59,664 nt of DNA from a virus (IMGVR_UViG_3300024581_003789:1-59664); one strand, 5' to 3'; shown: positions 12,184-52,940, counted from the stretch's first letter. Notes: generated by a model not told the origin, from the sequence alone. A program made the numbers and translations.

Positions 12184-12185
12184 AA

Positions 12186-22754: not shown

Positions 22755-22762
22755 TACTTATA
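22754..22762 (+). promoter_or_regulatory. Putative late promoter core ATACTTATA
   Basis: Identical 9-mer at 38202-38210; both are in short gaps shortly before structural genes. Confidence 0.4.
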
Positions 22763-22786
22763 AAATAATAAATAAGGATAAAAAAC

Positions 22787-23278: not shown

Positions 23279-23282
23279 TAAA

Positions 23283-25130
23283 TTGGCTAAAAACGTTAAA
23301 AAAGAAATTAAAAAATACAAAGAAGTAAGCTATACGAATAAAGACTTTAACTCTTTAAGAAATGAGCTCAGAAGATATATGCAAACACACTTCAGTGATA
23401 GCATTGTTGATTTTTCAGACTCGAGTCTTGGCGGTATGCTAGTTGATTTAGGCGCTTATGTAGGTGATATCATGACTTACTACCTAGATCACCAGTTCAA
23501 TGAAATTAATATTGAAACTGCAATTGAGCGCGAAAACATAGAAAGGCTAATCAGGGACGCGGGAGTTAAAATACCAGCAGCTGCTCCTGCATACTGCGAA
23601 GTTAATATAACAATTAATGTTCCAGCCGTAGTATCAGGCGGGGAATATGTGCCTGATCCGCTAGCATTGCCTATTATAAAAGCCAATTCAGTTTTTTCAA
23701 CATCAGGAGGAATTAAGTTTTATTTGCTAGACAGTTTGGATTTCTCTGAAACAAACGATCTAGGAAACCTTGTTGCTGAAAAGAGCATAGCTAATATTAC
23801 TTCATCAGGAATTGTTAATAATTTTTTCTTAACTAGAAAAGCACTAGTTTCCAGCGCAGAAGTTACATCGGAATCATTTTCTATAGAGAATAAATTAGTA
23901 CCTTTTAGAAGAATTACACTAAAAGAAGACAATGTCAATGAAATAATTTCTGTCATTGATAGTAGTGGTGACAATTATTATGAAGTTGACAGTCTATCAC
24001 AAGATACTGTTTTTTATGCTGCAACAAACATAGAAAACGACAGAGACGACGCACCTTATCGAATGGAATTGAGACATGCACCTAAAAGGTTTATTACTTC
24101 TAGAAGCATCAACACAGGAAAGACAACATTAAGGTTTGGCTCAGGTGACGAAGATAGTTTCGACGAAGATGTTGTTCCAGATCCTAGTGAACATTCAATT
24201 AGTCTTTATGGTGATAAAAAAAGCTTTCATAGTATAACAATTGACCCAAACAGCTTTCTAACAACACAGACGTTAGGAATAGCGCCTAGAGATACTACTT
24301 TAACCATTACATATAGGTATGGTGGTGGAGTTAACCACAATGTCTCTGCGGGATCGATTAACTCCGTCAAAACATTAACAACTCAGTTTCCAAACGGAAC
24401 TCCACCTTCAGTTGAAAATTCTGTTAGAGGCTCTTTGCGAGTAATTAATCTTAAAAATGCTTCAGGTGGAGAAGACGAACCAACCCTAGACTCAATGAGG
24501 CAAGTCGCAATCTTTAATAGAAGTTCTCAAAATAGAATTGTTACAAGAGAGGATTTGATTGCAAGAATATATTCGCTACCTTCAAAGTTTGGTAGAGTAT
24601 TTCGTGCAGCTGTATCTGACAATCCTCAGAATTATCAGTCAGCACAACTCCACATTATCTCAAGAAATAGCAAAAATAAACTTAGCTTGTCATCAGACAC
24701 ACTTAAGAAAAATTTGGCTAAATACCTTAATGAGTTTAGAATCATATCAGACGCAATTGACATTCTTGATGCAATCATCGTTAATATATCGATAAGATAT
24801 AGCGTAACAGTTGAAAAGGGTTACAGGCAAGATATTGTTATTGCTGATCTAAATAATAAAATTAAAAACTTGCTTAAAATTGAAAATATGCAAATTAACA
24901 AACCAATTGTTGTCAGCGAGATAGAAAACATCATTATAAACACACCTGGTGTTGTTAGCTTGTTGAATTTGAATATTGCTAGTAGGTCAGGTATATATAA
25001 CGGAAACATGTACAGCGATTATCAATTCAATGTTATGCAAAATATTGACAGAGGAATGTTATTTCCTCCTTTGGGCGGCATGTTTGAAATAAAATATCCA
25101 GGTGATGATATTGTAGGGAGCGTAGTCTAA
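23283..25130 (+). CDS. Baseplate wedge subunit gp6 / baseplate J-like
   Basis: YTNKDFNSLRNEL, DFSDSSLGGMLVDLGAYVGDIMTYYLD, LRFGSG, ITYRYGGG, ASGGEDE, SQNRIVTREDL; TTG start. Confidence 0.88.
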   Translation: MAKNVKKEIKKYKEVSYTNKDFNSLRNELRRYMQTHFSDSIVDFSDSSLGGMLVDLGAYVGDIMTYYLDHQFNEINIETAIERENIERLIRDAGVKIPAAAPAYCEVNITINVPAVVSGGEYVPDPLALPIIKANSVFSTSGGIKFYLLDSLDFSETNDLGNLVAEKSIANITSSGIVNNFFLTRKALVSSAEVTSESFSIENKLVPFRRITLKEDNVNEIISVIDSSGDNYYEVDSLSQDTVFYAATNIENDRDDAPYRMELRHAPKRFITSRSINTGKTTLRFGSGDEDSFDEDVVPDPSEHSISLYGDKKSFHSITIDPNSFLTTQTLGIAPRDTTLTITYRYGGGVNHNVSAGSINSVKTLTTQFPNGTPPSVENSVRGSLRVINLKNASGGEDEPTLDSMRQVAIFNRSSQNRIVTREDLIARIYSLPSKFGRVFRAAVSDNPQNYQSAQLHIISRNSKNKLSLSSDTLKKNLAKYLNEFRIISDAIDILDAIIVNISIRYSVTVEKGYRQDIVIADLNNKIKNLLKIENMQINKPIVVSEIENIIINTPGVVSLLNLNIASRSGIYNGNMYSDYQFNVMQNIDRGMLFPPLGGMFEIKYPGDDIVGSVV

Positions 25131-26644
25131 TGCATAGAGTATTAACGTCTTCAAAAGACACTTATATAACTAATAAAATTATTAATAATTCTTTTAGAGC
25201 ACTAAACGCAAATGTAGGTAGTGCTGGAACTTTAGACTTGTTTAAACTGTATAGCGAAAATTCAGTCCCAGGTGAAAGTGACCCAATTGAACTATCACGT
25301 CTTTTGATTAAATTTCCAATTGAAGAATTATCACGAATGGATGATCTTGGTTTAATTGACATTACTGATCCTAGTTTTAAATGTTATCTTAAACTTCATG
25401 ACGTTTACGGAGGGCAAACAACTCCTAGAAATTTCAAAGCTATTGTTTTTCCTTTGGCACAGGAATTCACAGAAGGGACAGGCTTGAATGTTGTATCATT
25501 TACAGACTTAGATGCTACAAATTATATGACAGCGTCAATCCAGAACGGTACTGCTGTATTATGGAATGAACCGGGAGCCATGGCCTCTGGAAGTTTAGGT
25601 GATTCGAATATTGATGTCATTGTTAGTGGATCACTATCAGGTACAAATACTTCTCTTTGTGTTGAACAACTTTTTGTAACAGGCGAAGAAGATCTAAATG
25701 TTGACATCACAACAATTGTATCAGGGACAGTTTCAAATCAAATTCCTAATCATGGATTTTTGATTGGTCTATCAGGAAGTTATGAAAATAATGACAAGTC
25801 ATACTTTGTAAAGCGTTTTGCATCAAGAAACGTTCAGGTTGCTTCACTAAGACCCAAACTTAGTGTTCATTTTGATGACAGTATGCAAGACAGTCACACA
25901 GACATGATTTTTAACGTGACAGGTGCTCTGTATTTAAGAAACTATCATCAAGGAAACTTAGAGAATATTCTGTCCGGTTCTTCAGCTTCTGAATTGTCTG
26001 GAGAGAACTGCATGATTTTAAAAATCGAGTCAGGAGACTTTAAAAAGACATTTAACGTGTCACAGGCAATGAGAGGAAGACATAGAATTCCAGGTGTATA
26101 TTCATCATCTTTTGCCATTTCTAGTTTTGACCCACTTTTATACGATGAAGTTAATGCATCCGGATCGATTACATTTAACGAAATATGGACCAACCCGGAA
26201 GAAACTGTGACATATCTTTCTTCCTCGATAGAAGTTAAAAGAGAATCAAGAAGAAAGTCAAATACGCAAAACCAAAACAACCTCTTAGTAACTGTATTAA
26301 ATGTCAATGAAGAATACAGACAAGGGGAGATTGTCAATATTCGAGTTTTTGCTGAAGCTCGCGATAGAGCAATTGTATATGCGCGTTCTCCGATTGAAAA
26401 GAAGAGTCAAATATTTAAAGAGATGTACTATAGAGTAAGAGATGTCAATGACGGAGAAGTAATTATTGACTTTGACAAGGTTAATCATTCAACTAAACTA
26501 TCGACAGATGAAGACGGTATGTTTTTTATATTTTTTACAGACTCTTTGGTGAAAGGTAGAACTTATACGTTTGATTTTCTCATTAGAAGAAACGGAGCTG
26601 ACACAGTAATCAAGGACGCAACATCTAAATTCAGGATTGTATAA
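25130..26644 (+). CDS. Virion structural protein with DNRLRE/CBM-like N-terminal domain
   Basis: SSKDTYI...NVG...SRLLIKF...LKL...W...NHGFLI...F.SR...RPKL pattern; baseplate context. Confidence 0.6.
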   Translation: MHRVLTSSKDTYITNKIINNSFRALNANVGSAGTLDLFKLYSENSVPGESDPIELSRLLIKFPIEELSRMDDLGLIDITDPSFKCYLKLHDVYGGQTTPRNFKAIVFPLAQEFTEGTGLNVVSFTDLDATNYMTASIQNGTAVLWNEPGAMASGSLGDSNIDVIVSGSLSGTNTSLCVEQLFVTGEEDLNVDITTIVSGTVSNQIPNHGFLIGLSGSYENNDKSYFVKRFASRNVQVASLRPKLSVHFDDSMQDSHTDMIFNVTGALYLRNYHQGNLENILSGSSASELSGENCMILKIESGDFKKTFNVSQAMRGRHRIPGVYSSSFAISSFDPLLYDEVNASGSITFNEIWTNPEETVTYLSSSIEVKRESRRKSNTQNQNNLLVTVLNVNEEYRQGEIVNIRVFAEARDRAIVYARSPIEKKSQIFKEMYYRVRDVNDGEVIIDFDKVNHSTKLSTDEDGMFFIFFTDSLVKGRTYTFDFLIRRNGADTVIKDATSKFRIV

Positions 26645-29600
26645 TGTCAAAAAATTTATTTACTAGGCAAAAAGGAAGACTTTTTGAGCCTAAATTTACA
26701 CGCCAAAACAAACCCTCGTCTAATTTTTTGAGAGAGCAATTGAATGTTTCAGACAATCAAGAATTTTTAAAAAATACAAACATAGAAAGCAGCTCTTCAT
26801 TTAGATATGGAAATAATACCGGTATTGTGTCCTCCCAGCAATTAAGAGTTGATTATTCTAGATTTGAAAATCATATATTCTTTCATTCTGCTGTTGCTAG
26901 CGTAAATGAAGCATTTGATAAAATAGTCAACTTTTATCCGTATGAAAAAAATAGAAAAGGTCTTGAACAATACGAGGATGAGTTAACCGGTTTTGAAAAA
27001 TACATTCTGGATCAATTTCCAAAAAATGTGGGTTACTTAAATTTTTCTGGATCTTTGGTAGGTGAGCCTTTAAGTAACGGAAGTCAAATTAATGTTCAAG
27101 ACATGTCCGGCGGAACACTTTTAGAAATTTCAGATAAAACATCTGGCGCTCCAGTTCTAGATCCTAACTGTTCTCCTTTCTGCTTGGAAATGTTTCTAAA
27201 GATTCCTGATCAAGCAAACGATAATCAAGTAATACTCCAAAAATATAGCAGTCTATCAAATAACTTTACATTGGCTCTGTCAGAATCAGCATCAACATCT
27301 GCGTGCGAAATTAGATTTTCTATCTCATCCGGATCAAATTATTTGATGGCGTCTGGGTCGATTGAAAAAGGCAGTTTTAATCATGTAAGCGCTTTATACG
27401 ATCCACATAGCGGAGGCACTTTAGAGTTAATGATCAATCAATCTGTGCATACTTCAAGCAACAATGTGGTATTTCAAAGGTTGAATTACAATGCTTCAGA
27501 CTTAACTATAGGGACTGGTGAGACACACAGATCTAATGGCGAAATATTTACAAATAAGCAGTCATTCTCTGGGTCGATTGATGATTTAAGATTTTTTCAT
27601 AAAGTTTTTCCAAAAGAAGAAATACAAGAAAGACGCATTAAAAGCTATTATCCACAAGAAGGTGACAACCTTAAACTTTACTTTAGATTTAATGAACCAT
27701 ACGGCGACTATTCAGGTAATGACTTGGTTTTTGATGCATCTGGTAATTCTTTACACTCAAGAATAGAAAATTTTGATATTGATTTGAGAAGTACAGGATC
27801 AGATGTTCCAGTTTTATCAGAAAATTTATATAGAAACCCAGTTCTATTTCCGACTTATGATGGTATTATTGATTTAAATACAAATCTTTTAACAACAGCA
27901 TCTCTCTATGATGAGTATAACCCGAACTTAATTACAAAATTAGTACCCCAGCATTACTTCCAAGAGGCAACCAATTATAGGGATTATAGTCAGGAACTTG
28001 AGCAGCTTGAAAGAAACTTCCATACATTTTCACAGAACAACCCAGGACAAAACAAGTCAGATATCCCCGCTGTTCAGTTGCTAATGAAGCTTCTGTTAAG
28101 TTATGCGAAGTTTTTTGACGAGCTTAAGCTCTTTATTGATGCAGTAACTAGCTATGCAAATACTGATTACGAAGATTATGACACAACTCCTGACCCTTTT
28201 CTTATTAGAAAGGCAAAAAGACACAATATAAAGCTTCCGCAGTTATTTTCTAATGCTAATATTGAGCAAGAGCTTGAGGGCGTTAACTTGTCTAGCGATG
28301 GAGGATTGTCTGTATTAAGCTTAAATCAAATCCAGAATTTAATTTGGCGAAGAATATTAAGTGAAGCCCCTAAGGTCAACAAGTCAAAAGGAACAATTAA
28401 TTCAATTAAAGGAATGTTTAGAAGCACCGGCATTGAACCAGACAATATTATGAATTTTAGAGAATACGGCGGATCTAAAGAAAAATCACTGGAAGCTTCA
28501 AGAGAAATATCTAGAGACGTTTATAGATTTTTAGACTTTTCTAGAATTTATGATTATCAGGTGACATCATTAGACGACAATGGTTACCCAATTGATTCAG
28601 GATTTGGGAGAATCAAAGGCGGGTATTTATCCGGATCCAGAACAGAAGTAGGCCTTCCCTTAGCAGCAGGAACATTTGTCAATAAAACGCTAGATAATCC
28701 AAACGGTGAAAGCGACAACCCTAACGATGGTTTATATACATCTGGAAGTTTTACCTATGAAGCTTTATATAAATGGGACTACGGTTATAAAAATCAGCCG
28801 GAGAGCTTAGTTAGAATGCATGTGACAGGTACTTTGGCGCCATCGTCAAAAGAGGCATGCCTTGTCAATCTTGTTGCGACTGATGAAGATATTACGCTTT
28901 ATATGAGAGACAATACTGAGGATTTAAAAAGCATTACCATTGGAGATGTTAATGTTTTTGACGGTGATATATGGAATGTTTCTTTTGGAAAAAAAGATGC
29001 ACATGACATGTCAACATCATCCACAGGGAGTTTCTTTTTAAGAGTTGGGAAGCAATTTAGTGGTGATATTATTGATCAGAGAGAAAATACGCTTCTTGTT
29101 CCGGAACCAGCTGCTAGTGTCTTTAAAAACATAAGCGAATACAATACCTCAGGAAGCTTTTTTGTAATAGGCGAACAAGATTTTCAAGAAACAGGCAAGG
29201 GTTCTTTTTTAAATGATAATACATTGACAGAACAAAACGCATTCGAAACTCATTTTTACGGAACTGTATCTAATATTAGATTTTATTCAAAAAACATTAC
29301 TGATCAAGAATTCTTAAATCATGTCAAGAATTATGATTCATTCGGTGTTCAAGACCCCAGAGTTAACTACGGATTTTCAACTTTGACGACAGGATCTTTT
29401 GAAAGACTAATAGCATATACAGATGGAAAACAAAATACAAATACAACAGACTCATTAGGCAGTATTAGGCTTTTCGACTTAAGTCAAAATAACTTACATT
29501 TTGAAGGATCTAATTTTGACCCGGAATCAACAATACTACTAAATAAGAGAGTAAATTTTGAAGTACTTTCTGATAAGTTTGACTTAAATCAAACAAAAGA

Positions 29601-30132
29601 AAAAATAAGAATTAGATCTTTTCAAAATGCTAATAATATTAATCAATCATACTTTTCAACGACTGCACCCGTTGACAAAGTACTTCCAAGTCATCAAAGC
29701 ACAGACGATAATAGATTTTCAATTGATATGTCAGTAATGTCTGGGTTAAATAAAAATATGATGAAAATATTTAGTGATCTAAGTTCATTTGAAGACTCGC
29801 TAGGGCACCCAAATGTTATTTTTGGAGATAGATATCAGGATCTTAAGTATTTAAGAGAGATATACTTCAATAATGTTTTAAGTGATCTGGATTTAGAAAA
29901 GTATAGAAGTCTATTTAAATGGATAGACAATTCTTTCTCTGATATCGTTTACTCAATGTTACCTCGAACTACTAGTTTCTTAGGTATTAATTTTATATAT
30001 GAATCACATGTCTTAGAAAGAAACAGATATAGATACTTATATGACGAAATCTATATGATGGCTAATCAAAGAGAAAATCAAAGAAGTGATATATACATGT
30101 CGCTCTTCGAAGGCAGAGCTAAGAGACACTGA
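26644..30132 (+). CDS. Large baseplate protein with LamG/ConA-like domains and a gp7/P2-gpI-like segment
   Basis: FNHVSALYD, FSGSIDDLRFF, LKLYFRFNE..DASGNSLH (LamG); KSKGTINSIKGMFRSTGI (tail-I-like). Confidence 0.7.
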   Translation: MSKNLFTRQKGRLFEPKFTRQNKPSSNFLREQLNVSDNQEFLKNTNIESSSSFRYGNNTGIVSSQQLRVDYSRFENHIFFHSAVASVNEAFDKIVNFYPYEKNRKGLEQYEDELTGFEKYILDQFPKNVGYLNFSGSLVGEPLSNGSQINVQDMSGGTLLEISDKTSGAPVLDPNCSPFCLEMFLKIPDQANDNQVILQKYSSLSNNFTLALSESASTSACEIRFSISSGSNYLMASGSIEKGSFNHVSALYDPHSGGTLELMINQSVHTSSNNVVFQRLNYNASDLTIGTGETHRSNGEIFTNKQSFSGSIDDLRFFHKVFPKEEIQERRIKSYYPQEGDNLKLYFRFNEPYGDYSGNDLVFDASGNSLHSRIENFDIDLRSTGSDVPVLSENLYRNPVLFPTYDGIIDLNTNLLTTASLYDEYNPNLITKLVPQHYFQEATNYRDYSQELEQLERNFHTFSQNNPGQNKSDIPAVQLLMKLLLSYAKFFDELKLFIDAVTSYANTDYEDYDTTPDPFLIRKAKRHNIKLPQLFSNANIEQELEGVNLSSDGGLSVLSLNQIQNLIWRRILSEAPKVNKSKGTINSIKGMFRSTGIEPDNIMNFREYGGSKEKSLEASREISRDVYRFLDFSRIYDYQVTSLDDNGYPIDSGFGRIKGGYLSGSRTEVGLPLAAGTFVNKTLDNPNGESDNPNDGLYTSGSFTYEALYKWDYGYKNQPESLVRMHVTGTLAPSSKEACLVNLVATDEDITLYMRDNTEDLKSITIGDVNVFDGDIWNVSFGKKDAHDMSTSSTGSFFLRVGKQFSGDIIDQRENTLLVPEPAASVFKNISEYNTSGSFFVIGEQDFQETGKGSFLNDNTLTEQNAFETHFYGTVSNIRFYSKNITDQEFLNHVKNYDSFGVQDPRVNYGFSTLTTGSFERLIAYTDGKQNTNTTDSLGSIRLFDLSQNNLHFEGSNFDPESTILLNKRVNFEVLSDKFDLNQTKEKIRIRSFQNANNINQSYFSTTAPVDKVLPSHQSTDDNRFSIDMSVMSGLNKNMMKIFSDLSSFEDSLGHPNVIFGDRYQDLKYLREIYFNNVLSDLDLEKYRSLFKWIDNSFSDIVYSMLPRTTSFLGINFIYESHVLERNRYRYLYDEIYMMANQRENQRSDIYMSLFEGRAKRH

Positions 30133-31232
30133 TGGCAAACAAATACTATTATAACAAAGGGTTTTCTGATAGACCGGGAGACGTAAAAAACTCAAACTTA
30201 ATTTACACAGGGAGTGTAACTGTTGACGGGAAGTATGTTGTTGGTGACATACCATCAAATGTTTTTACCTCTCCTATGCAAAGGCTGGGAAAAACAATTG
30301 GCGTACCCAAGCCAAATTTGACTCCAACAGATCGAGAAGAGAACGGTGTGGGTGGAATTAAGTTTGAAACGGTCACAGTATTTGGTGACTTAGAACCAGA
30401 AGCACAGATAACGTTGCGATCTCTAGATGGTTATAGGGTTGGAAAAAACATTAAGTCATATGATCATTTTGCATCACCAGTTTTTAGGCCGATCATAAGA
30501 ATATCACCTGAAGGTTTTTTTGAAGAAGATACAAGCGGTGTAGTTAATCACTATGCAAGTTTAAACTCTTTTGGCTTTGGACAATCTTACAAGACAGTTA
30601 ACGAAGATTATGAATTAATTCCTTTTAATGACTTTGGTAAACTAGACCCTGTCAAGCTAATAACTGAAGGAGAAAACTTAGCATATCCAATAGTCTACAA
30701 AGGAACAAATAATATAGAACACTACACAGATCCTTCTCATCCAGCTAGCGATGGTGCAATTGACGTTTTTGATGTTAGAAGCTATATGACTACAATGTCT
30801 CCATCTGACATCCACATCCACGGTATTAAAGGTGACTACCAAGGTGGCGGAATCGAAGATGTCCGAGCAGGAAGTAAGAAAATTGACAGCAAGCATGAAA
30901 TTTCCGGAAAGAGAACACATTCAACATTTTTAGATAGTCAAGAAATAGCCTTTAGCGAGTATAATTTTTCTGCTGTGGGAAAAACAACAAATTTAGCAAA
31001 TAGAAAATTTGCTTATCCCGGTTTTGTCACAGTTGAAAAAGAGACAATGTCACCTTTTTCAGAAGAAAATACGTACGGAGAAAATAACTCAACTGATTCT
31101 TTTCTTTTGGGGAAAATAGATAACGTAAGTGAAATCGGAACACGTTTTAAATCTGCAACAAACGGATTAATATTTGGAGAAAGCAACCCGCTAGGGACAG
31201 ACTCAATTGCTTTCGGAGGTTTAAAAAAGTAA
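30132..31232 (+). CDS. Putative structural protein
   Basis: Coupled by 1-nt overlaps within the tail operon. Confidence 0.6.
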   Translation: MANKYYYNKGFSDRPGDVKNSNLIYTGSVTVDGKYVVGDIPSNVFTSPMQRLGKTIGVPKPNLTPTDREENGVGGIKFETVTVFGDLEPEAQITLRSLDGYRVGKNIKSYDHFASPVFRPIIRISPEGFFEEDTSGVVNHYASLNSFGFGQSYKTVNEDYELIPFNDFGKLDPVKLITEGENLAYPIVYKGTNNIEHYTDPSHPASDGAIDVFDVRSYMTTMSPSDIHIHGIKGDYQGGGIEDVRAGSKKIDSKHEISGKRTHSTFLDSQEIAFSEYNFSAVGKTTNLANRKFAYPGFVTVEKETMSPFSEENTYGENNSTDSFLLGKIDNVSEIGTRFKSATNGLIFGESNPLGTDSIAFGGLKK

Positions 31233-34200
31233 TGCCTAAGAAAAATAATAACTTTCCAGAACAGTATGTGTTAGCAAATTTAACCAATTTTCCTAAACCT
31301 GCTTTATATGTTGACTTTTCTAATAACCCTTCTGACATGTCAATTAATCAAGCAGTTGTGGAATACGAATCTCAAATCGGGTATAATGTTGAGTCTTATT
31401 CAGAAAATGTGGGCCCTAATGATAATTCAATTTTTAACTATGCAGAATTTTCAAATTTAAGAAACAAACGTGCTTTGATTGATTATGGCGATGCTGATCC
31501 TCAAAATCCGTTATCTTTTGGTGTCTCCGGAACGGGTGAAAATAGACCTTTCACAGTTTCTTTTTGGTTTCAGACTCGTGTTAGTCAAACGTTTTATGGG
31601 CTATTTAGCTACCAAACACGCGCTTATACTGACGATTCCGGAGCTATAACATGTAGATACTATAGCTCGACTAAAACTTATGAATTTGTTATTAGTAGTG
31701 ATACTGTAGGACGTCAATTAATATGTACATGTACTCCGGATTCTGGGAGGGGATTGGACCCGTTTGAAACATGGACACACGTCACCATTACATATGATGG
31801 TACAAATACTGGTGGGTTTGGAGAAGATCGTGCTATTAAGTTCTTTATTAATGGCGAAGAAATCAACAGGAGTGGAGATTCTTTTCTTGTAAACAATGTC
31901 AGTAGTTTTACTCACTCCCCGCAAGATCCAACTAGACTTTTTGTAGGGGGTTGGGAAGATGGTGACGATGAATTATCTGGGTATATGTCTCAATTTATGT
32001 GGTTCAGCACTGCTCTAGATAACGACCAAATTAATCAAATTTACAACGGTCAACTAAATAATTTTTACTCTTCTGGTAGGCTAAGTAATCCTTCAAGAAC
32101 TATCATAAGAGAACAAGATGCATGGTCAGGAAAATACCCGACAGTTCACAGAATGAATAGAAAGGGCACCAGCGGTATATTATCTAATATTTTATTTGAT
32201 GATGCAAAGACAGTTAAATTTGGGACCCGTATATACGACAACTTTGATATAAAAGATTATGAAGTCTATACGAAAGAAGTCAATGGAGATGTTTGGGAGG
32301 TCTCTGAGGGCGTCATAATCAAAAGAGAATTTGACCCCAATGAAATTAATTCTGCATCAACAGGCGCAGTTGTTTTAGCGGGTGAAGGTGACAGCGATGG
32401 AAGATGGATTCAGACAAAAAATAAAATATCGATGCCTACTGTTTATCTAGACGTTCTTAGAGGCCCTTATAATGACCAAGGTGGTTTGTTGGGTTCATTA
32501 AAGCTGGGATTGGTAGAAGGAGGCCTAAATGAAACTCTTTTTATTCAAGCAAAAACTGAAGGTGGATCTTGGGAAAATATTACTATTGAAGAAAGTTTTA
32601 TTGGATCTGACGTTAATAGTGATCTTTTAAGAGCAGGCGGCTTGAATGCAGGAAGTTTTCTTTTTGGTGTTAACATCGATCAGCAGAATAGCTTAACTAG
32701 TCAAGTTAAAAAGGATAATCGACCGGTAATGTCATTAAAGATACCAATGGAAGCCTTTGCCAAAGCAGGATTTACTAGTGAACCCTTTTATTTAAGAATT
32801 GCACAATCTCAAGTCAACAGTGCGTCACGAAACGTTTGGGCAATAGGAAAAATTGATATCATCTCTAGGGATGAACAGGTGACTTATCCTGCATTAAACA
32901 AAGGCGTAACTGCTGATTTATTTCATCTGTCACAAAAAATAGCTTCACCTAATATTGTAAGTTACTTAACCACAACTGGAAGCGCAATTGAGGGAATTAC
33001 AGATTCAGAGTATAGTTTTATCGATTCTAGCTTGGAGCAGAAGAACACTCCTTTTGATGAATTACTAGTCACAAATTATCAAAACAATGAATTTCATAGG
33101 GTAGGAACAGATCCAAATGTACTGCCTGGGTTTGATTTGCCTTTGTTAGATAAGACAAAAATAAGCATAACTTTGTCTGCTAGTTCAGAAACTCGGATAG
33201 GATTAGTATACCCCCCACCAAAAAACACACTAACATCATACCAAAATATGATGTGTTATTATAATTTTAAAGATAAAATTTGGGATCTTGGTGCCTTGCA
33301 GGGCCCTCAAAGATTTGGTCAGACTTTTGATGACATGATAGTGTCTTCATCGATTGGCTTTGGATCACTTAATCCAATAGGAGAGTCAAGCTCTACCACG
33401 ATTGGAACACCAACTATACATGACAATTTTCAGTATAATGGAGACTTTTTCGTCAATTCCAGTGTAAGGCCCACAAATGCATTTGGGTTTCCTTCGCACG
33501 TAAAATTTGCACCTGAAGAATATTCTGGTCAGACGATTAAAGCATCTGAGTTAGGGATAACAAAGCCATTTCTTTTGGAAAAAATAAAAATGTCTTTCGA
33601 TGCATCAATGCAGTTTGCAGATATTGAAGATGGTGGGACATCTAATCAGTACTACTCTTTAGAATTTATGACTATTCCAGGTAGTAACTACCAAGTTAGT
33701 TATTTTGAAAATACTGAAGTATACATACCTACTTTTTTTATTTTGAGGAATTTTAAAGACTCGTTAAATGTAATCAATAACGTTCAAAAAATTGATCAGT
33801 CGTTAGGTTCTGTTGTTGAAAATTTCGACTTCAATATTAACATTCCAGACAGTAGATATATTTGGGATCGAACAACAGGATTACCAGATACATATAACGA
33901 TTATGTCACAACTAATAGAGAACTAATAACATACGGACAATTTTCTGTATATCGATCAGGTAGTGAAGAAAATAATCAATTTATAAGAGTCGAAGGTGAC
34001 ACCAACAATTATACGCTTATTGACGCGCCATTTAGTGACAATGTTTTAAATTCTTTAACGAGAGACTCAAAAATTCTAACCATAACCTCAAGTATTAACA
34101 GCCTAGATTTAAATCAGCACACAATAGAATTTCCGTGTAGGTCACCTATAATTTCTCAAAACGTCTTTTCAACTTTTGACAGCTATGAAGGTGCTGGAAA

Positions 34201-35521: not shown

Positions 35522-35535
35522 ATTAGGTATCATAA

Positions 35536-38184: not shown

Positions 38185-38201
38185 TGTTTTTCACAATGTG
38201 A

Positions 38202-38210
38202 ATACTTATA
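38202..38210 (+). promoter_or_regulatory. Putative late promoter core ATACTTATA
   Basis: Intergenic; identical to 22754-22762. Confidence 0.4.
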
Positions 38211-38227
38211 ACTAACAAAGGACAAAT

Positions 38228-39277: not shown

Positions 39278-39279
39278 TC

Positions 39280-42036: not shown

Positions 42037-42050
42037 AGGATAAGATAAAA

Positions 42051-45000
42051 ATGGCAAAGAATACTGCGGACATCAATATCAGTCTTGAATCATCTTCAAA
42101 AGTGGCAGAATTTCCTAGCTCTGCAGGAAAATTATTAGAAATTTTAATTGCTGAGCAAAAAAGTAGTGATATCAATGAAGAAGCATATGAAGCTTTTACT
42201 TCGCCAGGAAATACAGAAATTTATAAAAGGTTGCAGTCGAAAGGCCTAAATAATTTGAGATCTGAGATTATTAGCATCTGTGAGTTCATACCTATATCAA
42301 CAGAGAACATAGATGAGTCAGCGTCTATGCATAATAAGAAATTAGGGGAAAATACTTCCATCAGCGTTTCTAACATTTCTAGAGTAATTGAACTACATCG
42401 ACAAATAAGAGAATATATTTATACAGCATCACAACTAGTTCTTGACGCTGAATACCCGGGATTGTCTGACCCTGAATTTTTAAAAGAGCTTAGCAGGTGT
42501 GTCAACAGAGGCTTTAATACTAGTGCAGATACGTCAACTAAGAAAACTGTAGATAATATCATTACTGCGATTTTAAGTAATGAAGTCAATAAAGTGGGCC
42601 CTGCCTCTAATAAAACTGTTGAGCTTATTTCTACTAACAGAAACAATCCATATTTTCTTGGCTTGGTTGAATATTTTGTTTATCGTCGTCTAGTAGATGA
42701 AATATCTAAATATCTTTATAGGATATCAGAAATAGAAAACAATCTTTCTGGTTATATAAACATCGACAATTTTAGAAATTTAAAAACTTTTAATCCTGCC
42801 AGCGCTTTTGAAGACGTGGATGATAGAGCTAAAAACAGTTTTAATTCAGAAACACAAACGCTGCTTTACGATGATAATCTTTCTTTATCTTTGATGGCAC
42901 TAGATACTTTGACAGACAATGTTTCAGGAGATATCTACGTCAATGCGATCGGGCAGCTAATTAATGCTTGCACATTTAGAGATTCTGCTAGAACTCTGTC
43001 TTCGCTTTCATCCGCAGATCGATCGCTAACTAGAGTTCAAACTGGCAAAATGAGAGTAGGTATTCAGTCAGACTTATCAGAAACTATCGCGAATATAAAG
43101 TCGATACCGCTAAAAGGTTTTTTAACCTTACTGGGTGATAACACACAAGAAGAAATCAATTCTTTCGGAGTTAATTACGAATCAGAAAAAGAATTGACGC
43201 TGGAAAAATTTTACTCTTATTTTAAAAACATAAGAAACGCTTCCGGTGATGGATTTGATGAGGTGGAAGAGGGAGCAAAGGAGCTCATGGCTGCTTTAAG
43301 CTACGATATCATGTCGTGGTACATAACTAGAATTGGTGGTGAAGAAGCAGGTACATCATCAAGCTTAACAGAGGGTTCAGTATCTTCTGAATCAACTGAC
43401 CTAGGTTACTCTATTGCTGATTCACTTCACTCTTTTAGGCTTAGTGAAAGACAATCCGGAGTTACAAACAACAATAATCAATATGTTCGTTATTCCAAAG
43501 AACTTGCAAAAGAAGGTAACAATATATACTTTGATTATCTACAAAAGAATTTTGGAATTGATAAAAATATTCTCGATATTAATGAAGCTGAATCAGGATC
43601 AAAAATAGTAGACATTTCAGAGTCTTTAGTCTCTACACCCGGTAATACTTCTATTAGTAGCGAACCAAATAGTGTAGGTTTTGGAGACTTTACAAGAAAT
43701 ACATACGGTTACAGAAAAGGAACGTTTTATAGCGAGAGTCAAAATAATTCTGTCAATTACCTACCTCTAGAGTCTTCAAATACAACAGACAACGCTGTTC
43801 CAGGTGCCAAGTTTTTTGTAGAAAGCAAACTCCAAGACTTGGCTTTATCTAACAATTCGCAAGAAAATTCTGAGTATTCAAAATTTGTAAAAGATTACAA
43901 AAAGCTATCTAATTTTTTGTTTGAGGACATTCTTACTCTTTACCCACACAGTGAGATAACCAAACAATATAATAGTCAAGAAAACGAAGATAATAGAGGA
44001 AAAGGTGAGCATCGCTTGACACCTCTAGGGCTGGGATCTGCAAAAACTATGTTATTCAATATGATCCAAGGTTTGATTCTAGATTTAGAAGATATAATAA
44101 GCCAATCAAATGATGAAAAAACTTCTTTGATTCCTTTGTTGGCAATTGTTTTAAAAGCTAGCAATAATGAAACAGAAAAAAGCATTTTTCCTTTTTTAAG
44201 CTCTTTGTGGGGTGAAGTTTATCTGGATCCAGCAAAGGAATCCAGCGCAAAAATAAAAATAGGGCGTTATTTAGAGTATTATACAGAAATATGTGCAATT
44301 AACTTTTTTAAGTCGTTAGGATTGTCTCCAAGAGAGCAAGGTAGTGACGCAACAAGAGAGTTTATGGGTGGCTCCGGTCAATCTTACAATTTGTGGCTAG
44401 GGGACAATAATGATTTATTTTATAAGGGCAATATTGCAAATAAGTTTAATAGAGGAAAAGACCTAAACAAAAAAATTGAAAATGATAGCAAAACAGGAAG
44501 TACAACTGTATTGAAAATTCAGGCTAAAAAAATAGATAATGTTTTTGATAATACTTTAGGCGGTGGAGAACGATTATCTAAAGTTAGTGAAGGGCATGAA
44601 AGTGACAGTGTCAAATACGGGATTCACAGATTATTTTCAAAGCTTTATGAAGCAGCAAATAACTTAGAAATTCATGAAAGTCTAAATGGAAAAACTAATA
44701 TATCATGGGTAGATCCTGAATTTACTAATACGAATTCAGGAAAAAGAAAATACATTGACCACACTAGTGCAAATATGCTTGAAAACGGGAGAGGGTATCC
44801 TGGTGAAGATTTTGTAAACCCTAACGGTGTTAACGGAGAGTTGATCAATTTTTCTGGACAACATGCAATGTTAATAGCATATCAATGGGCTACAAAGTTA
44901 ATTCAAAAAACAATTCAAGTATTTGCTCAAACAACTTCTGACGGAACTTTTAGTCTTAAAATATATGACGATCAAATCCAGGGAACAATAGACGGATTAA

Positions 45001-46511
45001 AGAGTGTAATGATAGACAGCTCAAATAGTGATCTATCAGGAAATTTTAGCGAAAATTATATCAACTCATACCAAATTGCAAAAAATTATGCAGAAGACAC
45101 TGTATCTAAAATTACTATCAGAGAGAACTTTATAAGAGATATTGCAGGTCTATTTTCAGCGCATAGTGATGCTATTAAAAATCTAGATAGTAAAATTGAC
45201 AACATCTTTGAAGGTGACACTGGAAGCTTGGCTGTTAATACTCTTAAAGAAAATAATGTTTTTAAAGACAGCGTCATTGCTATTGATAGTCTAGGTGTAG
45301 GTGAGTTGATTAAATCAAAAAATAAGTTTTTTGAACTGTCAAAAGATTCTTTAATTTTTAGAAACACTAAGCATGTCTTACCTAAGATAAATTTAATGGA
45401 AAAAGTTTTTTCAAGAAGCGGGTATGGGTTCTTAAAGTCTGAAAAACTTGGTCAAAAGTCCATGATAAATGTTGGGATTCCAAAGACAATGATCAGCACT
45501 TTGCAATCACTAGCTTTTAGAGAGACAAGCGACCCAAGATATATTGACTCTCCTTTTGTTTGCATTTCTGTTTTTAAGAAAAACCACCTTGACCCAGAGG
45601 CGGAATACTATCCTAAGAATTTTATTTTTGATGTGTCTGCAAACATTCTGGACTATAAAATAGACAATAGCGATTTAGGGAAGTTGACTAATCATTTAGA
45701 AAATTTAAAAACTGACATGTCTTTCAGTAACATACTTAAGTCTATAGAGTTGCAAAGATTCTTGCCCGGGGGTAAAGATATAAAAATTCATACTTCTTTT
45801 GGGTATGGAGAGTCTGGTATGTTTTCTAAAGAAGTTTTAATTAATCATCTTCACGACTACCTTTTGAAAGAATATATCAAAATGACTACCGGTTTTTTAA
45901 TTGATGAAAGTTCTTTTCTTCTTGCAGAAAAGCCAATCAACTATCAAAACGTGGAAACAACTCAAAATTTAGGAACTAGACTCAATAATGAGTACCAAAG
46001 AGTCTTAGAAAACATTAGAAAAAGATATCCTAAAATAGAAGTTGATGATCAACTCAAGAGTGAAGTCTTTAGAATGATAAGTATGATTAAGCAGTCTGCA
46101 CCTTTTTCTTTTGTCAATCGATTCAAACAAACAATAACACCTAATAGTTTTGATAAAGTTTATACAGTTTTGATCAATGAAAAAGATTTTGTAAGAATTC
46201 CTCCCGCAGGTATGACATCAGACAATCACATACTTTCTATAGACGGATCGTTGACAAGAAAACTAGTCTCTAGTTATCAAATTAGCGAAGACGGGTCTTT
46301 AAGTTACGGAAATACAATAAGCGTATTGAATGAGTCAGACAATAACACGCCTTCTGTATATAACTACTATACACAAGTCTCTATTCTTCCGATCGGGTTT
46401 GTCGAAGGAGCACAACCTGTGACTATCGATGGCGGAACAACTAGTTCAATTTCTTTTGCATCGCCCATTCAATCTACAGGCCCGGTGACGGTTCCTGTTG
46501 GACTATTTTAA
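42051..46511 (+). CDS. Very large hypothetical protein (1486 aa), probably virion-associated
   Basis: Long ORF with AAGGA RBS inside the structural block; no motif recognised. Confidence 0.6.
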   Translation: MAKNTADINISLESSSKVAEFPSSAGKLLEILIAEQKSSDINEEAYEAFTSPGNTEIYKRLQSKGLNNLRSEIISICEFIPISTENIDESASMHNKKLGENTSISVSNISRVIELHRQIREYIYTASQLVLDAEYPGLSDPEFLKELSRCVNRGFNTSADTSTKKTVDNIITAILSNEVNKVGPASNKTVELISTNRNNPYFLGLVEYFVYRRLVDEISKYLYRISEIENNLSGYINIDNFRNLKTFNPASAFEDVDDRAKNSFNSETQTLLYDDNLSLSLMALDTLTDNVSGDIYVNAIGQLINACTFRDSARTLSSLSSADRSLTRVQTGKMRVGIQSDLSETIANIKSIPLKGFLTLLGDNTQEEINSFGVNYESEKELTLEKFYSYFKNIRNASGDGFDEVEEGAKELMAALSYDIMSWYITRIGGEEAGTSSSLTEGSVSSESTDLGYSIADSLHSFRLSERQSGVTNNNNQYVRYSKELAKEGNNIYFDYLQKNFGIDKNILDINEAESGSKIVDISESLVSTPGNTSISSEPNSVGFGDFTRNTYGYRKGTFYSESQNNSVNYLPLESSNTTDNAVPGAKFFVESKLQDLALSNNSQENSEYSKFVKDYKKLSNFLFEDILTLYPHSEITKQYNSQENEDNRGKGEHRLTPLGLGSAKTMLFNMIQGLILDLEDIISQSNDEKTSLIPLLAIVLKASNNETEKSIFPFLSSLWGEVYLDPAKESSAKIKIGRYLEYYTEICAINFFKSLGLSPREQGSDATREFMGGSGQSYNLWLGDNNDLFYKGNIANKFNRGKDLNKKIENDSKTGSTTVLKIQAKKIDNVFDNTLGGGERLSKVSEGHESDSVKYGIHRLFSKLYEAANNLEIHESLNGKTNISWVDPEFTNTNSGKRKYIDHTSANMLENGRGYPGEDFVNPNGVNGELINFSGQHAMLIAYQWATKLIQKTIQVFAQTTSDGTFSLKIYDDQIQGTIDGLKSVMIDSSNSDLSGNFSENYINSYQIAKNYAEDTVSKITIRENFIRDIAGLFSAHSDAIKNLDSKIDNIFEGDTGSLAVNTLKENNVFKDSVIAIDSLGVGELIKSKNKFFELSKDSLIFRNTKHVLPKINLMEKVFSRSGYGFLKSEKLGQKSMINVGIPKTMISTLQSLAFRETSDPRYIDSPFVCISVFKKNHLDPEAEYYPKNFIFDVSANILDYKIDNSDLGKLTNHLENLKTDMSFSNILKSIELQRFLPGGKDIKIHTSFGYGESGMFSKEVLINHLHDYLLKEYIKMTTGFLIDESSFLLAEKPINYQNVETTQNLGTRLNNEYQRVLENIRKRYPKIEVDDQLKSEVFRMISMIKQSAPFSFVNRFKQTITPNSFDKVYTVLINEKDFVRIPPAGMTSDNHILSIDGSLTRKLVSSYQISEDGSLSYGNTISVLNESDNNTPSVYNYYTQVSILPIGFVEGAQPVTIDGGTTSSISFASPIQSTGPVTVPVGLF

Positions 46512-46522
46512 AAAGGAAAATC

Positions 46523-48529: not shown

Positions 48530-48556
48530 AAATTTACCACGAAACTTATTAGTGGT

Positions 48557-48565
48557 ATATTTATC
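48557..48565 (+). promoter_or_regulatory. Putative late promoter core ATATTTATC
   Basis: Variant of ATAYTTAT in the gap before a structural gene. Confidence 0.3.
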
Positions 48566-48597
48566 TAATAAGAAATATATAGAACGGAGAGTTTAAA

Positions 48598-49311: not shown

Positions 49312-49329
49312 TAAAGAGGAAAATTAATA

Positions 49330-50553
49330 ATGGCAACTTTTAAAACAATCACTAGTGACGATATCAAAACAACAACATCAGTTTTGAATCAGTTAGTAGA
49401 CTTTGTAGAGTCTGATGTATCAGGTTCAAATACACGAAAAAAATATCAAGTATTTGTTACCAGCTCTGGCGATAATGCAGTTACTTCTTCTTTGTTTCAC
49501 ACTGTATACGATCAAAACTACACTTTGCAAACATCAAACGAACTTTTTGACATGACAATGGGTATTTTTGAAGGATCTGATACTGTTGTTGATGCTCAAG
49601 CTGGTTTGTCTCCGGACGCAAATGGAAAACTTTTGTTCCCGTCACAGTCTCTAATGATGAGAGAAAAAATTAGTATCTATAAGCAACATGCACAATTACT
49701 TTTAGGTGATTCCAGTCAAAGATTCACTGCTCCGTTCACTCAATCAACTGTTCTTGACTCTAACAATATTGATGAAGCACTTTTTATTAACTTTAAAAGA
49801 CTTTTTGTTCGCGACGGAATTAAAAGAGAAACTTTTGCTGTTAAAATGTGGCAAAGTTCTTCATTTGGTGACTTTGACGAAGCTGGTTTTATTGCAAGTC
49901 ATGCAGGTGAGCAAAACTTAATTGTGACTGAATTGCACCCACCAACAGGATCTTTTATTTATACAGACGTTGGATCATCAACCAGCGTAGAAAGATCTCC
50001 TACAGGAGGAGACGTTGGCAATATTGTTAATGCCTCAGACACTTCTGAAGTTGTGGGAACAATGTTCTACCAACAAGGTATTGCAGTATTTGATATGAAA
50101 AAGATCTTTAATGCAGATCAGTTTATTACAGGCTCTATTCAGTCTGTGGGTGACAAGCAAAACACTGATGTACATGATTCATTCATTCCTGGTTTTGTTG
50201 TTTCTGCATCAATGGATCAGATTTTAGATCACGTTGCATCAACTAGATTTGGTAGCGGTTCAAACACTGTCATGACTTTCCAAAATAATACAAAAATTAA
50301 CTCTACACTCTATTTTTGTAGAGCAACTGCTGATGAATTTAATTACTCAACAAACCCATCTTATACTAACGAAGAAGGAAGAATTAGAGTTATCTCTGCT
50401 GGGCAAGAAGGTGTTGAGAAGTCATTTTCATTCATTACAACAGTAGGGCTTTATGACGCAAACGAAGAATTACTGGCAGTTGCAAAATTAAGTCGTCCTG
50501 TTGAAAAGAACGACGAAAAGGATATGACTTTCAGAGTACGTCTAGACTTTTAA
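49330..50553 (+). CDS. Structural protein with C-terminus resembling the second half of the tail-collar fibre domain
   Basis: EFNYSTNPSY..FITTVGLYDANEELLAVAKLSRPVEK..FRVRLDF; GAGGA RBS. Confidence 0.7.
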   Translation: MATFKTITSDDIKTTTSVLNQLVDFVESDVSGSNTRKKYQVFVTSSGDNAVTSSLFHTVYDQNYTLQTSNELFDMTMGIFEGSDTVVDAQAGLSPDANGKLLFPSQSLMMREKISIYKQHAQLLLGDSSQRFTAPFTQSTVLDSNNIDEALFINFKRLFVRDGIKRETFAVKMWQSSSFGDFDEAGFIASHAGEQNLIVTELHPPTGSFIYTDVGSSTSVERSPTGGDVGNIVNASDTSEVVGTMFYQQGIAVFDMKKIFNADQFITGSIQSVGDKQNTDVHDSFIPGFVVSASMDQILDHVASTRFGSGSNTVMTFQNNTKINSTLYFCRATADEFNYSTNPSYTNEEGRIRVISAGQEGVEKSFSFITTVGLYDANEELLAVAKLSRPVEKNDEKDMTFRVRLDF

Positions 50554-50561
50554 GGAAAATA

Positions 50562-52940
50562 ATGTCATTTGTTAAAATAGACAGAAATAATTTTGAGTAT
50601 GTCACACTAAATGTTAAGCCGGAGTTATCTTTTATTTCGTCTTCGCTTGGTGTGACAGGTTCAGAATATATCGCTCCAATTAGATCTAAATGTTTAAAAA
50701 ATTTAATTCCAACAACATTTGATTTAAACGGCGACGGAGAAACAACTTTTGGAGAAGCTATTTTTGCAGTTGCTTCATCCCCCGCCGGAACTTTGCACTC
50801 AATGCAAAATAATCCGCTTTCATATGATTTAGCAAATGCTCATTTGAGTGCAGTTAATAATGCAAATACTATAGCTAAATTTGATAAAACAATAGATGTT
50901 TTTAGAATCGATCAGCCAGGAACGTTTAACAAAAACAAGGTTGTAAAAAACGTAGTTAAAAATGTCTTAATGAAACAACATCAACATAGATACGAAAACT
51001 GCAATTTTACATATACAAATTATAATTCTCTTAACTTTTTTACATCAGAGACGATACCTACAGGCTCTGCTTTAATTTATCCTAACGTAGAGTTACCAGC
51101 ATTAGGACGAGGTGCATACGACCTACCTGATAGTTTTAGTGTAAACTTTTGGATTAATCCTAGATATTCTTCAACAAGTGAATATCATCCCGGAACAATA
51201 CTGCACATATCATCTTCAATTGCTATTAGTCTGATTACAGGATCATCTCCTACTAGAAATGAGTTTAACGAGTACAAAGATTTTAAAATATTGGTTCAGC
51301 TTAGTCAGAGTGCTGATATACCTCCGTCTTCACTTGATACTAACAATCTTAGTAAAGTTTTCCCCGCAGACTTAATCTTTACTTCTTCTTTCAGCTTAAG
51401 CAAAAATCATTGGCACCATGTATGTGTACAATGGGGTAACGCCTATCATAATAGTTCTGGTTCTATTATTATTGATGACGGTGAAACATTTTTTCATGTA
51501 CCATCTGCTTCTTTGCACGCAGACCCTAATAACACGCCCTCTGGGATTATCATAGGGAACTTCTACGATGGTTCTGTTACAAACTTAGCTGATATCCTAA
51601 ATGATGATATAGCCGCACTGGAAGGATTTACTGGTGTAGGCCCTGCAATCCCTGGTGCACCGGGTATTAACGAGAATACTTTTTCTCACCCGCTCAATGC
51701 CGAGATTCATGAACTAAAAATATTTGACATTCCCCTTAAAACAGAAGTGTCATGCGAGAACAGCAATTTAGTTACGCCAAGTGAATATGAATTAGTAAAG
51801 AGTCAAGGTGTAAGTAGTTTAGATAATTTACGTTTCTATTTACCTCCTTTCTTTTATCCGGAGACGTCAACTAGAGAGGTCTTAAACACACCATTTCAAA
51901 CAGTGACAAGTACTACAGACGACCCTATCAATGTAGGATTTTCTTTTGGTGTTAATGGTAAACTAATAAATCTAGAAAACTTTACAAGAGAATTTGTTAT
52001 AGGGCAACAGCCTAGACTTTTAGGATTAGTACCAGAGATTATAAGCACTTACACATCAGATTTGACTCCTGACGAGTATGTTTATGACAGCGGTGCTAAC
52101 AAAAAAAGAAATATGACAATTCTTCCTAATGACAACGGTCTATTTAAGCCAAATTATTTTGTATTGTCTAGTTCACCAATGTCTGAAAGCATCAAGTTTT
52201 ATTCTTCTGGCAACAAGTCAATAGGCTTACCCGACTATTCAATCGTATCACTGGAAAATTTAATCCCAACTAGTTCTTTATTTCCGGGTCTAGTTCAGTC
52301 TACAGGGTCTATGTTCGATGCTGTTGTTGAGGCAGGAGCTCAAAACCCGGGTGTCAATCAAGGTGAAGTTCTTACAATTGCCCAAAGAACAAAAGACGTA
52401 AGCAGTAATGAAGTAACAATATATGATATATCTAACATTTATTACGGAAACAGAATCCACCCAGGTAGCTTTGAAGTATTTGAAGAAGATTTGACCGGAT
52501 CTGATGGTAAAATTAAAATTAGATTGAGAGATAATGAAAGAGGATCTTTGTATCGAGCAGACTGCTTAACAGAACAAGCAAAATGGAACAATGTAGGAAG
52601 TATATTCTATGATGAGGGAATTGCAATGATTAAGTCACCTCATTTGTTCTATTTCAATAAAGATAAAACTCATATATCGTTTAAGGGCGAACAGAATATT
52701 CATACAATGATGCTAAATATTCCTGCCTATAAAGAACTATTTAATTCATCATCAAATCCAACATATCAAAAATACACCCCTAGTGACAATATAAATGATC
52801 AGCACCTAAGTGCTGTCTATGTATCAACAGTTAACATTCATGATAATAACTTTAATATTATAATGAAAGCAAATTTTGCTCAGCCTATTTTAAAGACTGA
52901 AGAAGATGAATTTGTCATTAGACTAAAAGAGGATTTTTAA
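50562..52940 (+). CDS. LamG-containing structural protein, C-terminal paralogue of 49330..50553
   Basis: FSVNFWINP, WHHVCVQW, AEIHELKIF; VGSIFYDEGIA; FNSSSNPTY..YVSTVNIHDNNFNIIMKANFAQPILK..IRLKEDF. Confidence 0.7.
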   Translation: MSFVKIDRNNFEYVTLNVKPELSFISSSLGVTGSEYIAPIRSKCLKNLIPTTFDLNGDGETTFGEAIFAVASSPAGTLHSMQNNPLSYDLANAHLSAVNNANTIAKFDKTIDVFRIDQPGTFNKNKVVKNVVKNVLMKQHQHRYENCNFTYTNYNSLNFFTSETIPTGSALIYPNVELPALGRGAYDLPDSFSVNFWINPRYSSTSEYHPGTILHISSSIAISLITGSSPTRNEFNEYKDFKILVQLSQSADIPPSSLDTNNLSKVFPADLIFTSSFSLSKNHWHHVCVQWGNAYHNSSGSIIIDDGETFFHVPSASLHADPNNTPSGIIIGNFYDGSVTNLADILNDDIAALEGFTGVGPAIPGAPGINENTFSHPLNAEIHELKIFDIPLKTEVSCENSNLVTPSEYELVKSQGVSSLDNLRFYLPPFFYPETSTREVLNTPFQTVTSTTDDPINVGFSFGVNGKLINLENFTREFVIGQQPRLLGLVPEIISTYTSDLTPDEYVYDSGANKKRNMTILPNDNGLFKPNYFVLSSSPMSESIKFYSSGNKSIGLPDYSIVSLENLIPTSSLFPGLVQSTGSMFDAVVEAGAQNPGVNQGEVLTIAQRTKDVSSNEVTIYDISNIYYGNRIHPGSFEVFEEDLTGSDGKIKIRLRDNERGSLYRADCLTEQAKWNNVGSIFYDEGIAMIKSPHLFYFNKDKTHISFKGEQNIHTMMLNIPAYKELFNSSSNPTYQKYTPSDNINDQHLSAVYVSTVNIHDNNFNIIMKANFAQPILKTEEDEFVIRLKEDF

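Follow-up and report, generated by a model that had tools for sequence, protein, structure and literature searches.

Why should a single tripeptide recur throughout the virion proteins of one phage, and what, if anything, reads it? The question arises from IMGVR_UViG_3300024581_003789:1-59664 (59,664 nt, hereafter the window), the first 59.7 kb of a 134 kb record of an uncultured marine T4-like phage (GC content 34%, CheckV completeness 46%), in which essentially all genes are on the + strand. The tripeptide [Ser/Thr]-Gly-Ser ([ST]GS) is frequent there in a 28 kb block of large structural proteins that follows a gp6-like baseplate gene (25130-52940), and an earlier examination of the DNA, here called the sequence-only reading, took these tripeptides for O-glycosylation acceptor sites of a glycosyltransferase (GT) and sulfotransferase gene cluster in the same window. 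In the outward-facing virion proteins of this phage and of its many relatives, [ST]GS occurs at four to eight times its chance frequency. The [ST]GS excess is real, ordered, located at the protein level and confined to outward-facing virion proteins, which confirms the original observation and makes it stronger and wider than first stated, and the glycosylation interpretation is partly supported. As the best single explanation we propose, tentatively, that the motif may be a site read by the phage's own glycosyltransferases.

Recounting reproduced all per-protein figures of the sequence-only reading, with the 43 [ST]GS sites consisting of those in its nine named proteins and single sites in 30132 and 39280 (proteins are named after the first coordinate of their gene). 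When compared with 2000 shuffles of each protein, five proteins were individually enriched (each p ≤ 0.0005). These are the outer baseplate protein directly 3′ of the gp6-like gene (25130..26644, + strand, 504 amino acids; 5 sites, at residues 153, 166, 215, 282 and 344, vs. 0.6 expected, p < 0.0005), the large baseplate protein (26644..30132, + strand, 1162 amino acids, LamG_3 at residues 177–328; 10 sites vs. 1.26, p ≤ 0.0005), and the structural proteins 38228 (38228..39277, + strand, 349 amino acids; 3 sites vs. 0.22, p = 0.0005), 49330 (49330..50553, + strand, 407 amino acids; 4 sites vs. 0.58, p = 0.0005) and 50562 (50562..52940, + strand, 792 amino acids, weak LamG_3 match; 6 sites vs. 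0.85, p < 0.0005). The expectations for the three richest proteins agree with the rough figure of about one that had been given for each. The large structural proteins 31232, 35536, 39280 and 42051 (31232..46511, + strand) carry 1–3 sites each and none of them is significant by itself (shuffle p 0.26–0.54 over the four, 0.26–0.37 for 31232, 35536 and 42051 with 3 sites each), and the Gly/Ser/Thr-rich fibre protein 9066 (9066..10217, + strand) is marginal (4 sites vs. 1.36, p = 0.046). As had been stated, the gp5-, gp25- and gp6-like inner baseplate core (20934..25130, + strand) contains zero sites and thus forms an internal negative control, and just two sites are found in enzymes. One of these is at the primase C-terminus, and the other is the lone [ST]GS of YeaH (window:143-1315), which forms the motif DVSGS of the von Willebrand factor A (vWA) metal ion-dependent adhesion site (MIDAS), which is known as a signature of metal binding and has no relation to the virion motif.

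A motif that was picked after seeing the data may owe its excess to that choice, to local richness in Ser, Gly and Thr, or to paralogous repeats, and such a statistical or compositional artefact could draw on the lack of individual significance of 31232, 35536 and 42051 (3/8 virion-block proteins), on the marginal fibre protein, and on Pelagibacter phage HTVC008M, where the excess comes mostly from repeats. To correct for the post-hoc choice, all 8000 tripeptides were scored in the 12 proteins of 25130-52940, where TGS ranked first (20 vs. 4.3 expected, p = 4e-8) and SGS second (19 vs. 6.9). Of the residues before G-S only S and T were raised, and of those after [ST]-G only S, and the permutations SGT, TGT, GGS and SGG lacked enrichment, which rules out compositional heterogeneity as the cause. 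The 30-residue flanks of the 39 sites in the block were no more alike than those of random positions (mean similarity −25.1 vs. −25.6), and the sites are therefore independent and not repeat copies; this agrees with the earlier statement that they do not form a tandem repeat, and rules out paralogous repeats as the cause in the window. Since Ser is encoded at the sites by both AGY and TCN codons, and Gly by all four of its codons, the signal sits at the protein level, and a DNA-level word was likewise rejected. The excess was furthermore replicated in ~130 other contigs and two cultured phages (see below), and we consider an artefact to be already refuted and highly improbable.

Over the complete 134 kb, 84 [ST]GS were found vs. 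22.8 expected in 19 outer virion proteins (z = 13), and 11 vs. 17.5 in the remaining 79 open reading frames (ORFs). The sequence-only reading had placed a glycan coat on the outer baseplate and fibres; sites are indeed present there, but they are not limited to these structures, as extra domains of the capsid protein and of both tail-sheath proteins also carry them. The gp23-like major capsid protein (L095:14002-15918, 638 amino acids) has its best Pfam match at residues 375–628, with all 3 sites N-terminal to it, and the two adjacent tail-sheath paralogues (L096:4453-7548 and L096:7567-10521, ~1000 amino acids each) have ~700–800 residues of extra N-terminal domains, which contain 8/8 of their sites, ahead of the Pfam-matched conserved sheath regions. 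Three large fibre-like proteins likewise belong to the outer set, and in one of them 17 sites were counted vs. 2.8 expected. Separately, a 737 amino acid protein with a weak bactofilin-like match (L098:9388-11601) contains SAVSGSFSGD at residues 311 and 414, a near-exact repeat with a spacing of 103.

The motif is ordered, and reads hydrophobic-[ST]-[G>A>S]-S-hydrophobic, i.e. a hydroxyl residue, a tiny residue and Ser. The residue following the motif is hydrophobic in 54% of the sites vs. 33% background, the residue preceding it is likewise hydrophobic in relatives, and the pentapeptide hydrophobic-[ST]GS-hydrophobic occurs 25 times vs. 2.3 expected. Variants were assessed in a pool of 78 further loci (127,000 residues), in which TGS was raised 4.8–5.4-fold and SGS 4.7–6.5-fold, followed by [ST]AS (2.4–3.9-fold) and [ST]SS (1.5–3.0-fold). 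The reverse order was weak (SGT 1.4–2.3-fold, SST ~1-fold), and NGS, DGS, AGS, SGN, SGD, GGS, SGG, STS, TTS, SNS and TNS were all at ~1-fold in this pool. The motif is not a by-product of the LamG_3 signature, which was rejected as the cause on coverage: although three proteins of the block match LamG_3, one of them weakly, only 3/39 sites are within significant matches (with 2 more in a weak one), and just 3 of the sites of 26644 fall inside its LamG_3 match.

The excess is conserved over a broad aquatic clade. A search of viral contigs gave 241 relatives of the 25130 protein, for which 80 loci were fetched; the 80 homologues of 25130 (41–79% identity) contain 446 sites vs. 63.5 expected, the 44 homologues of 26644 contain 462 vs. 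76.6, and those of 38228 contain 21 vs. 2.6. Homologues of the gp5-, gp25- and gp6-like core total 24 vs. 48.4, 0 vs. 8.0 and 0 vs. 3.4, respectively, and when taken together with the homologues of the two GT4-family glycosyltransferases encoded upstream of the core (GT4-1 and GT4-2), 29 vs. 72. In a second set of 80 loci, obtained with a gp6 profile (31–56% identity), the proteins encoded 3′ of gp6 displayed a 2.3- to 7.6-fold excess, mostly ≥3-fold, in every locus with enough sequence. The excess is thus kept, at 3–7-fold, in ~130 related viral contigs as well as in the cultured phages Mel-JY01 and immuto, and peripheral baseplate proteins, fibres and the added domains of capsid and sheath bear the motif as a conserved mark specific to this lineage. 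The sites fill ~13 (25130 family) and ~22 (26644 family) semi-stable columns, which alternate between [ST]GS and closely similar variants. For the 26644 family, the Ser/Thr at position 1 is kept in 90% of the distant homologues vs. 45% for other Ser/Thr (p = 4e-5) and the Ser at position 3 in 68% vs. 35% (p = 8e-4), and for the motif Gly conservation does not significantly exceed that of other Gly; at site 794, Gly is kept in just 6% (94% replaced), with both hydroxyls staying. Searches of cultured phages with 25130 and 26644 (tblastn) or with the region (megablast) gave no match, and nothing was found in the PDB with the 25130 family profile or in PHROGs with the motif-rich proteins.

Candidate enzymes are encoded beside the baseplate genes. 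GT4-1 (17109..18359, + strand; Pfam Glycos_transf_1, 4e-14) and GT4-2 (18356..19543, + strand) overlap by 4 bases. Similarity between the two enzymes is limited to the region around the EX7E motif, which is family-conserved and intact in both (E288...E296 and E280...E288, respectively). All family loci with a full upstream flank have the order nuclease, GT4-1, GT4-2, sigma factor, gp5, gp25, gp6, 25130, 26644, and because each of them carries the GT4 pair, a contrast with GT-less members inside the family is impossible. GT4-1 is very highly conserved, with orthologues in Mel-JY01, immuto, Rhodothermus phage RM378 and the uncultured 484 kb phage genome LR756508, and a search of 50,697 cultured phage records detected orthologues of GT4-2 in immuto (4 records) and Mel-JY01 alone; GT4-2 was not found in LR756508, HTVC008M or T4, and a PDB sequence search with GT4-2 returned nothing. 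Immuto and Mel-JY01, which are the closest cultured gp6 relatives, each encode two neighbouring GT4s, with GT2 genes in the vicinity. A glycan gene cluster lies further upstream in the window (10282..16134, + strand; Pfam), and encodes a GT2-containing protein, a cupin, a GT2, a GT64+GT25 fusion, a sulfotransferase and a methyltransferase. Searches of Mel-JY01, immuto and RM378 detected neither GT64 nor the sulfotransferase, the latter being a weak negative, as this search was positive in no control genome either. The link to the GT and sulfotransferase genes made by the sequence-only reading therefore stands in part: across the wide clade, it is only the GT4 pair and the GT2 genes whose presence goes with the motif, and not the GT64/sulfotransferase part. 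With respect to other tasks for these enzymes, a ThyA-type base hydroxymethylase was not found in the source genome (46% complete), Mel-JY01 or RM378, so that classic DNA glycosylation via hydroxymethylated bases was rejected and is no obvious alternative job for the GTs. In RM378, a gene annotated as similar to UDP-galactopyranose mutase (L099:15773-16924) is located within ~2 kb of a 49330-type structural gene, a hint that sugar chemistry may be linked to virion genes in the broad group.

Genomes with different sets of glycosyltransferases allow a comparison of motif excess. In the post-gp6 proteins of immuto and Mel-JY01, 61 sites vs. 13.3 expected were counted in one phage and 45 vs. 6.1 in the other (4.6–7.4-fold), and RM378, with a GT4-1 orthologue and a weak neighbouring match, has a modest excess of 10 vs. 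3.6 (2.7-fold). LR756508 shares the baseplate layout (L107:19968-35334), with sigma factor, gp25, gp6 (33% identity), a 1400 amino acid 26644 homologue, 49330-type proteins and primase; GT4-1 is its only GT4, neither GT4-2 nor GT2 was found in this genome, and there is hardly any excess, with 7 [ST]GS vs. 3.0 expected (2.3-fold) and 2 vs. 0.86 in the 26644 homologue. The outer baseplate and fibres of T4, which has no GT4 and no GT2, contain 7 vs. 8.4 (0.8-fold). The contrast with LR756508 and T4 indicates that the folds do not need the motif, and that the excess scales with the GT4-2/GT2 complement; LR756508 is the most informative of these genomes and provides a natural contrast. HTVC008M (GC content 34%), with no GT4 and only a sub-threshold GT2 match, has 37 vs. 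18.0, but this excess is due to SGS alone, with TGS at its expected level, and copies of six repeated units account for about half of the sites, leaving ~1.4-fold after collapsing the repeats. There is thus no comparable independent excess in these two phages lacking GT4, which is what the sequence-only reading expected of such controls. The HTVC008M fibre and baseplate repeats (L105:33435-50000 and L106:61-5206) have units such as TDTIxFxGxI-[ST]GS-LVFEGS and LTTPVIAEID-SGS-TITLDATTDI, and give extreme tripeptide biases (FEG, 18 vs. 1.2), showing that repeats can mimic a sequon signal. The contigs of more distant IMG/VR relatives are 9–36% complete and too fragmentary to add further cases to the GT4 correlation.

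Several observations weigh against a role of the motif in glycosylation. All motif-rich phages belong to one broad lineage, and the GT4 correlation hence reflects just one or two events in evolution; all matches of the GT4s to characterised protein O-glycosyltransferases fall below threshold; and the depletion of the motif in the 79 non-virion ORFs is below significance (P = 0.08). Sporadic sites, outside the inherited columns, are at or below chance (27 vs. 61 in the 25130 family, 47 vs. 73 in the 26644 family), giving no sign of ongoing selection for new sites. The latter counts also feature in a purely structural explanation, in which [ST]-G-S starts or caps strands, with the Ser/Thr side chains hydrogen-bonding to the backbone and a tiny middle residue permitting the geometry; the motif would then be favoured in surface beta-sandwich, jelly-roll and fibre domains, and the GTs would act on host surface glycans, DNA or a small molecule. 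The AlphaFold2 models (25130, predicted local distance difference test (pLDDT) score 87, a chain of beta-sandwiches with a carbohydrate-binding module (CBM)-like jelly roll; 26644, of moderate quality with pLDDT 69) place 10/23 window and family sites (43%) 0–4 residues before a strand start, compared with 20% of positions overall (p = 0.008) and 29% of other tripeptides with Gly in the middle. Capping of strands would also agree with the hydrophobic flanks, one site belongs to FxGxIDD, a conserved signature at the C-terminal end of LamG_3, and HTVC008M has motifs of the I-[ST]GS-LVFEG type within its repeated fibre units without a GT4, from which it follows that the motif can be purely structural.

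The bias to strand starts is real but partial in these models, as over half of the sites are in the interior or at the end of strands, in coil or at a helix cap, and the sites have unrelated flanks and occur in different folds. Comparable or homologous proteins are made without the motif by T4 and LR756508, the hydroxyls are better conserved than the Gly, no enrichment is seen for N-G and D-G, the pairs that usually form turns, and position 3 excludes Thr even though Thr has the higher strand propensity. We consider the structural explanation possible but less likely than glycosylation; were it correct, the motif would still represent, for this lineage, an unusually sharp sequence rule for the start of beta-strands. 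The sharp and ordered specificity, and the limitation to virion surface proteins, would equally suit recognition by something other than a glycosyltransferase, such as another Ser/Thr modification (phosphorylation, AMPylation by the conserved PAP2-Fic enzyme, or acylation) or the docking of a chaperone or decoration protein, and the genome does encode both a PrkA-type protein and a PAP2-Fic fusion. There is however no known preference of Fic or PrkA for such a motif, and the GT4 pair is the only candidate enzyme found inside the baseplate module across the family, which makes this explanation unlikely.

For the favoured role of the motif as a glycosyltransferase site, we propose that the soluble GT4 pair encoded beside the baseplate genes would recognise hydrophobic-[Ser/Thr]-[Gly>Ala>Ser]-Ser-hydrophobic and O-glycosylate one of the two motif hydroxyls in the cytoplasm, during or after folding, and that the GT2 enzymes would extend the glycan chain, the outcome being a sugar coat on the particle. 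If the GTs act on protein at all and the motif is their acceptor, such a coat might provide shielding, stability or adhesion. Extended to the aquatic T4-like clade with Microcystis and Flavobacterium hosts, this would mean O-glycans over the whole virion surface, attached via the GT4 pair at a [ST]-[G/A/S]-S sequon, which we put forward with slightly more caution still. Literature searches did not find a publication describing the motif, nor anything relevant on glycosylation in this lineage. If true, the proposal would describe a sequon-directed system of protein glycosylation for the first time in a bacteriophage. A sequon read by a conserved enzyme pair would make glycosylated virion surfaces predictable from sequence alone in a very abundant group of marine and freshwater phages, would bear on host recognition, particle stability, grazing and adsorption to marine polymers, and might supply a portable tag-and-enzyme pair for glyco-engineering. 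The proposal is directly testable, since two relatives are cultured: the immuto phages (Flavobacterium sp. LMO8) and Mel-JY01 (Microcystis).

The remainder of the window is organised as follows. Its 5′ part encodes a YeaH-SpoVR-PrkA triad and PhoH, followed by the fibre protein, a PD-(D/E)XK nuclease lies between the glycan gene cluster and the GT4 pair, and the primase and the PAP2-Fic fusion are encoded in the 3′ part after the structural block. The sigma-70/SigF-like late sigma factor (window:19835-20593) keeps its position between the GT4 pair and the baseplate genes across the family, and the GT4 genes may thus lie just outside the late structural operon. Proteins 49330 and 50562 have a conserved C-terminal domain in common (EFNYSxNP...ITTVGLYD...LLAVAKLSKP..., at window:49900-50553 and window:52600-52940), which is also present in paralogues of Mel-JY01 (five), immuto (two), RM378 (one) and LR756508 (two), and which is probably a common baseplate-attachment module carrying variable N-terminal parts.

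Eukaryotic glycosaminoglycans are attached at Ser-Gly, and this served as analogy in the sequence-only reading. The resemblance consists of a Ser adjoining Gly, and of a GT64-type enzyme and a sulfotransferase in the source genome, but the flanks of the sites are not acidic (acidic fraction 0.125 vs. 0.123), SGxG is not enriched (11 vs. 9.6), and together with the failure to find GT64 in Mel-JY01, immuto and RM378 this removes the analogy. Other sequons are flat in the virion proteins, both the Bacteroidota O-glycosylation sequon D-[ST]-[ALIVMT] (66 vs. 67.5, z = −0.2) and N-x-[ST]. The repeats of HTVC008M have hydrophobic-[ST]GS-hydrophobic in beta-rich proteins in common with the phage studied here, and differ in being few paralogous unit copies in a phage without GT4, whereas the sites described here are independent and spread across unrelated domains.

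A further counterpart may be found in the staphylococcal SdgB/SdgA and streptococcal GtfA/GtfB systems, cytoplasmic GT4-family enzymes which O-GlcNAcylate serines in short repeated adhesin motifs, their substrates being long low-complexity SD or SA repeats. As in these systems, there are paired GT4-family enzymes, Ser acceptors in a short pattern, surface-exposed substrates and a reaction here proposed to be cytoplasmic, and the two adjacent GT4s both look catalytically competent from their EX7E motifs, as with SdgB/SdgA. The sequences do not belong to either family, with scores of 16.3 bits vs. a cut-off of 800 for SdgA/SdgB (NF047880) and of 15.6 bits vs. 574.6 for GtfA/GtfB (TIGR02918, nucleotide-binding region only). 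GtfA/GtfB furthermore combine one catalytic with one degenerate partner, unlike the two GT4s here with their family-conserved EX7E, and the candidate sites are isolated tripeptides in folded beta domains rather than repeats.

To our knowledge, glycosylation of phage particles by phage enzymes is documented only in mycobacteriophages, in which virion proteins are reportedly O-glycosylated by phage-encoded glycosyltransferases (Freeman et al. 2023, Cell Host Microbe 31:1216, as cited in PMC12619734). According to the summary in PMC12619734, the mycobacteriophage glycans are located at the C-termini of capsid and tail-tube subunits. The candidate sites described here differ in being internal tripeptides, known from sequence alone and spread over many outer proteins, namely those of the outer baseplate and the fibres and the added domains of capsid and sheath. 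The present phage nevertheless resembles the mycobacteriophages in encoding its own soluble glycosyltransferases (two GT4, two GT2 and the GT64+GT25 fusion), in having virion proteins as the proposed acceptors, and in the surface coat that is proposed to result.

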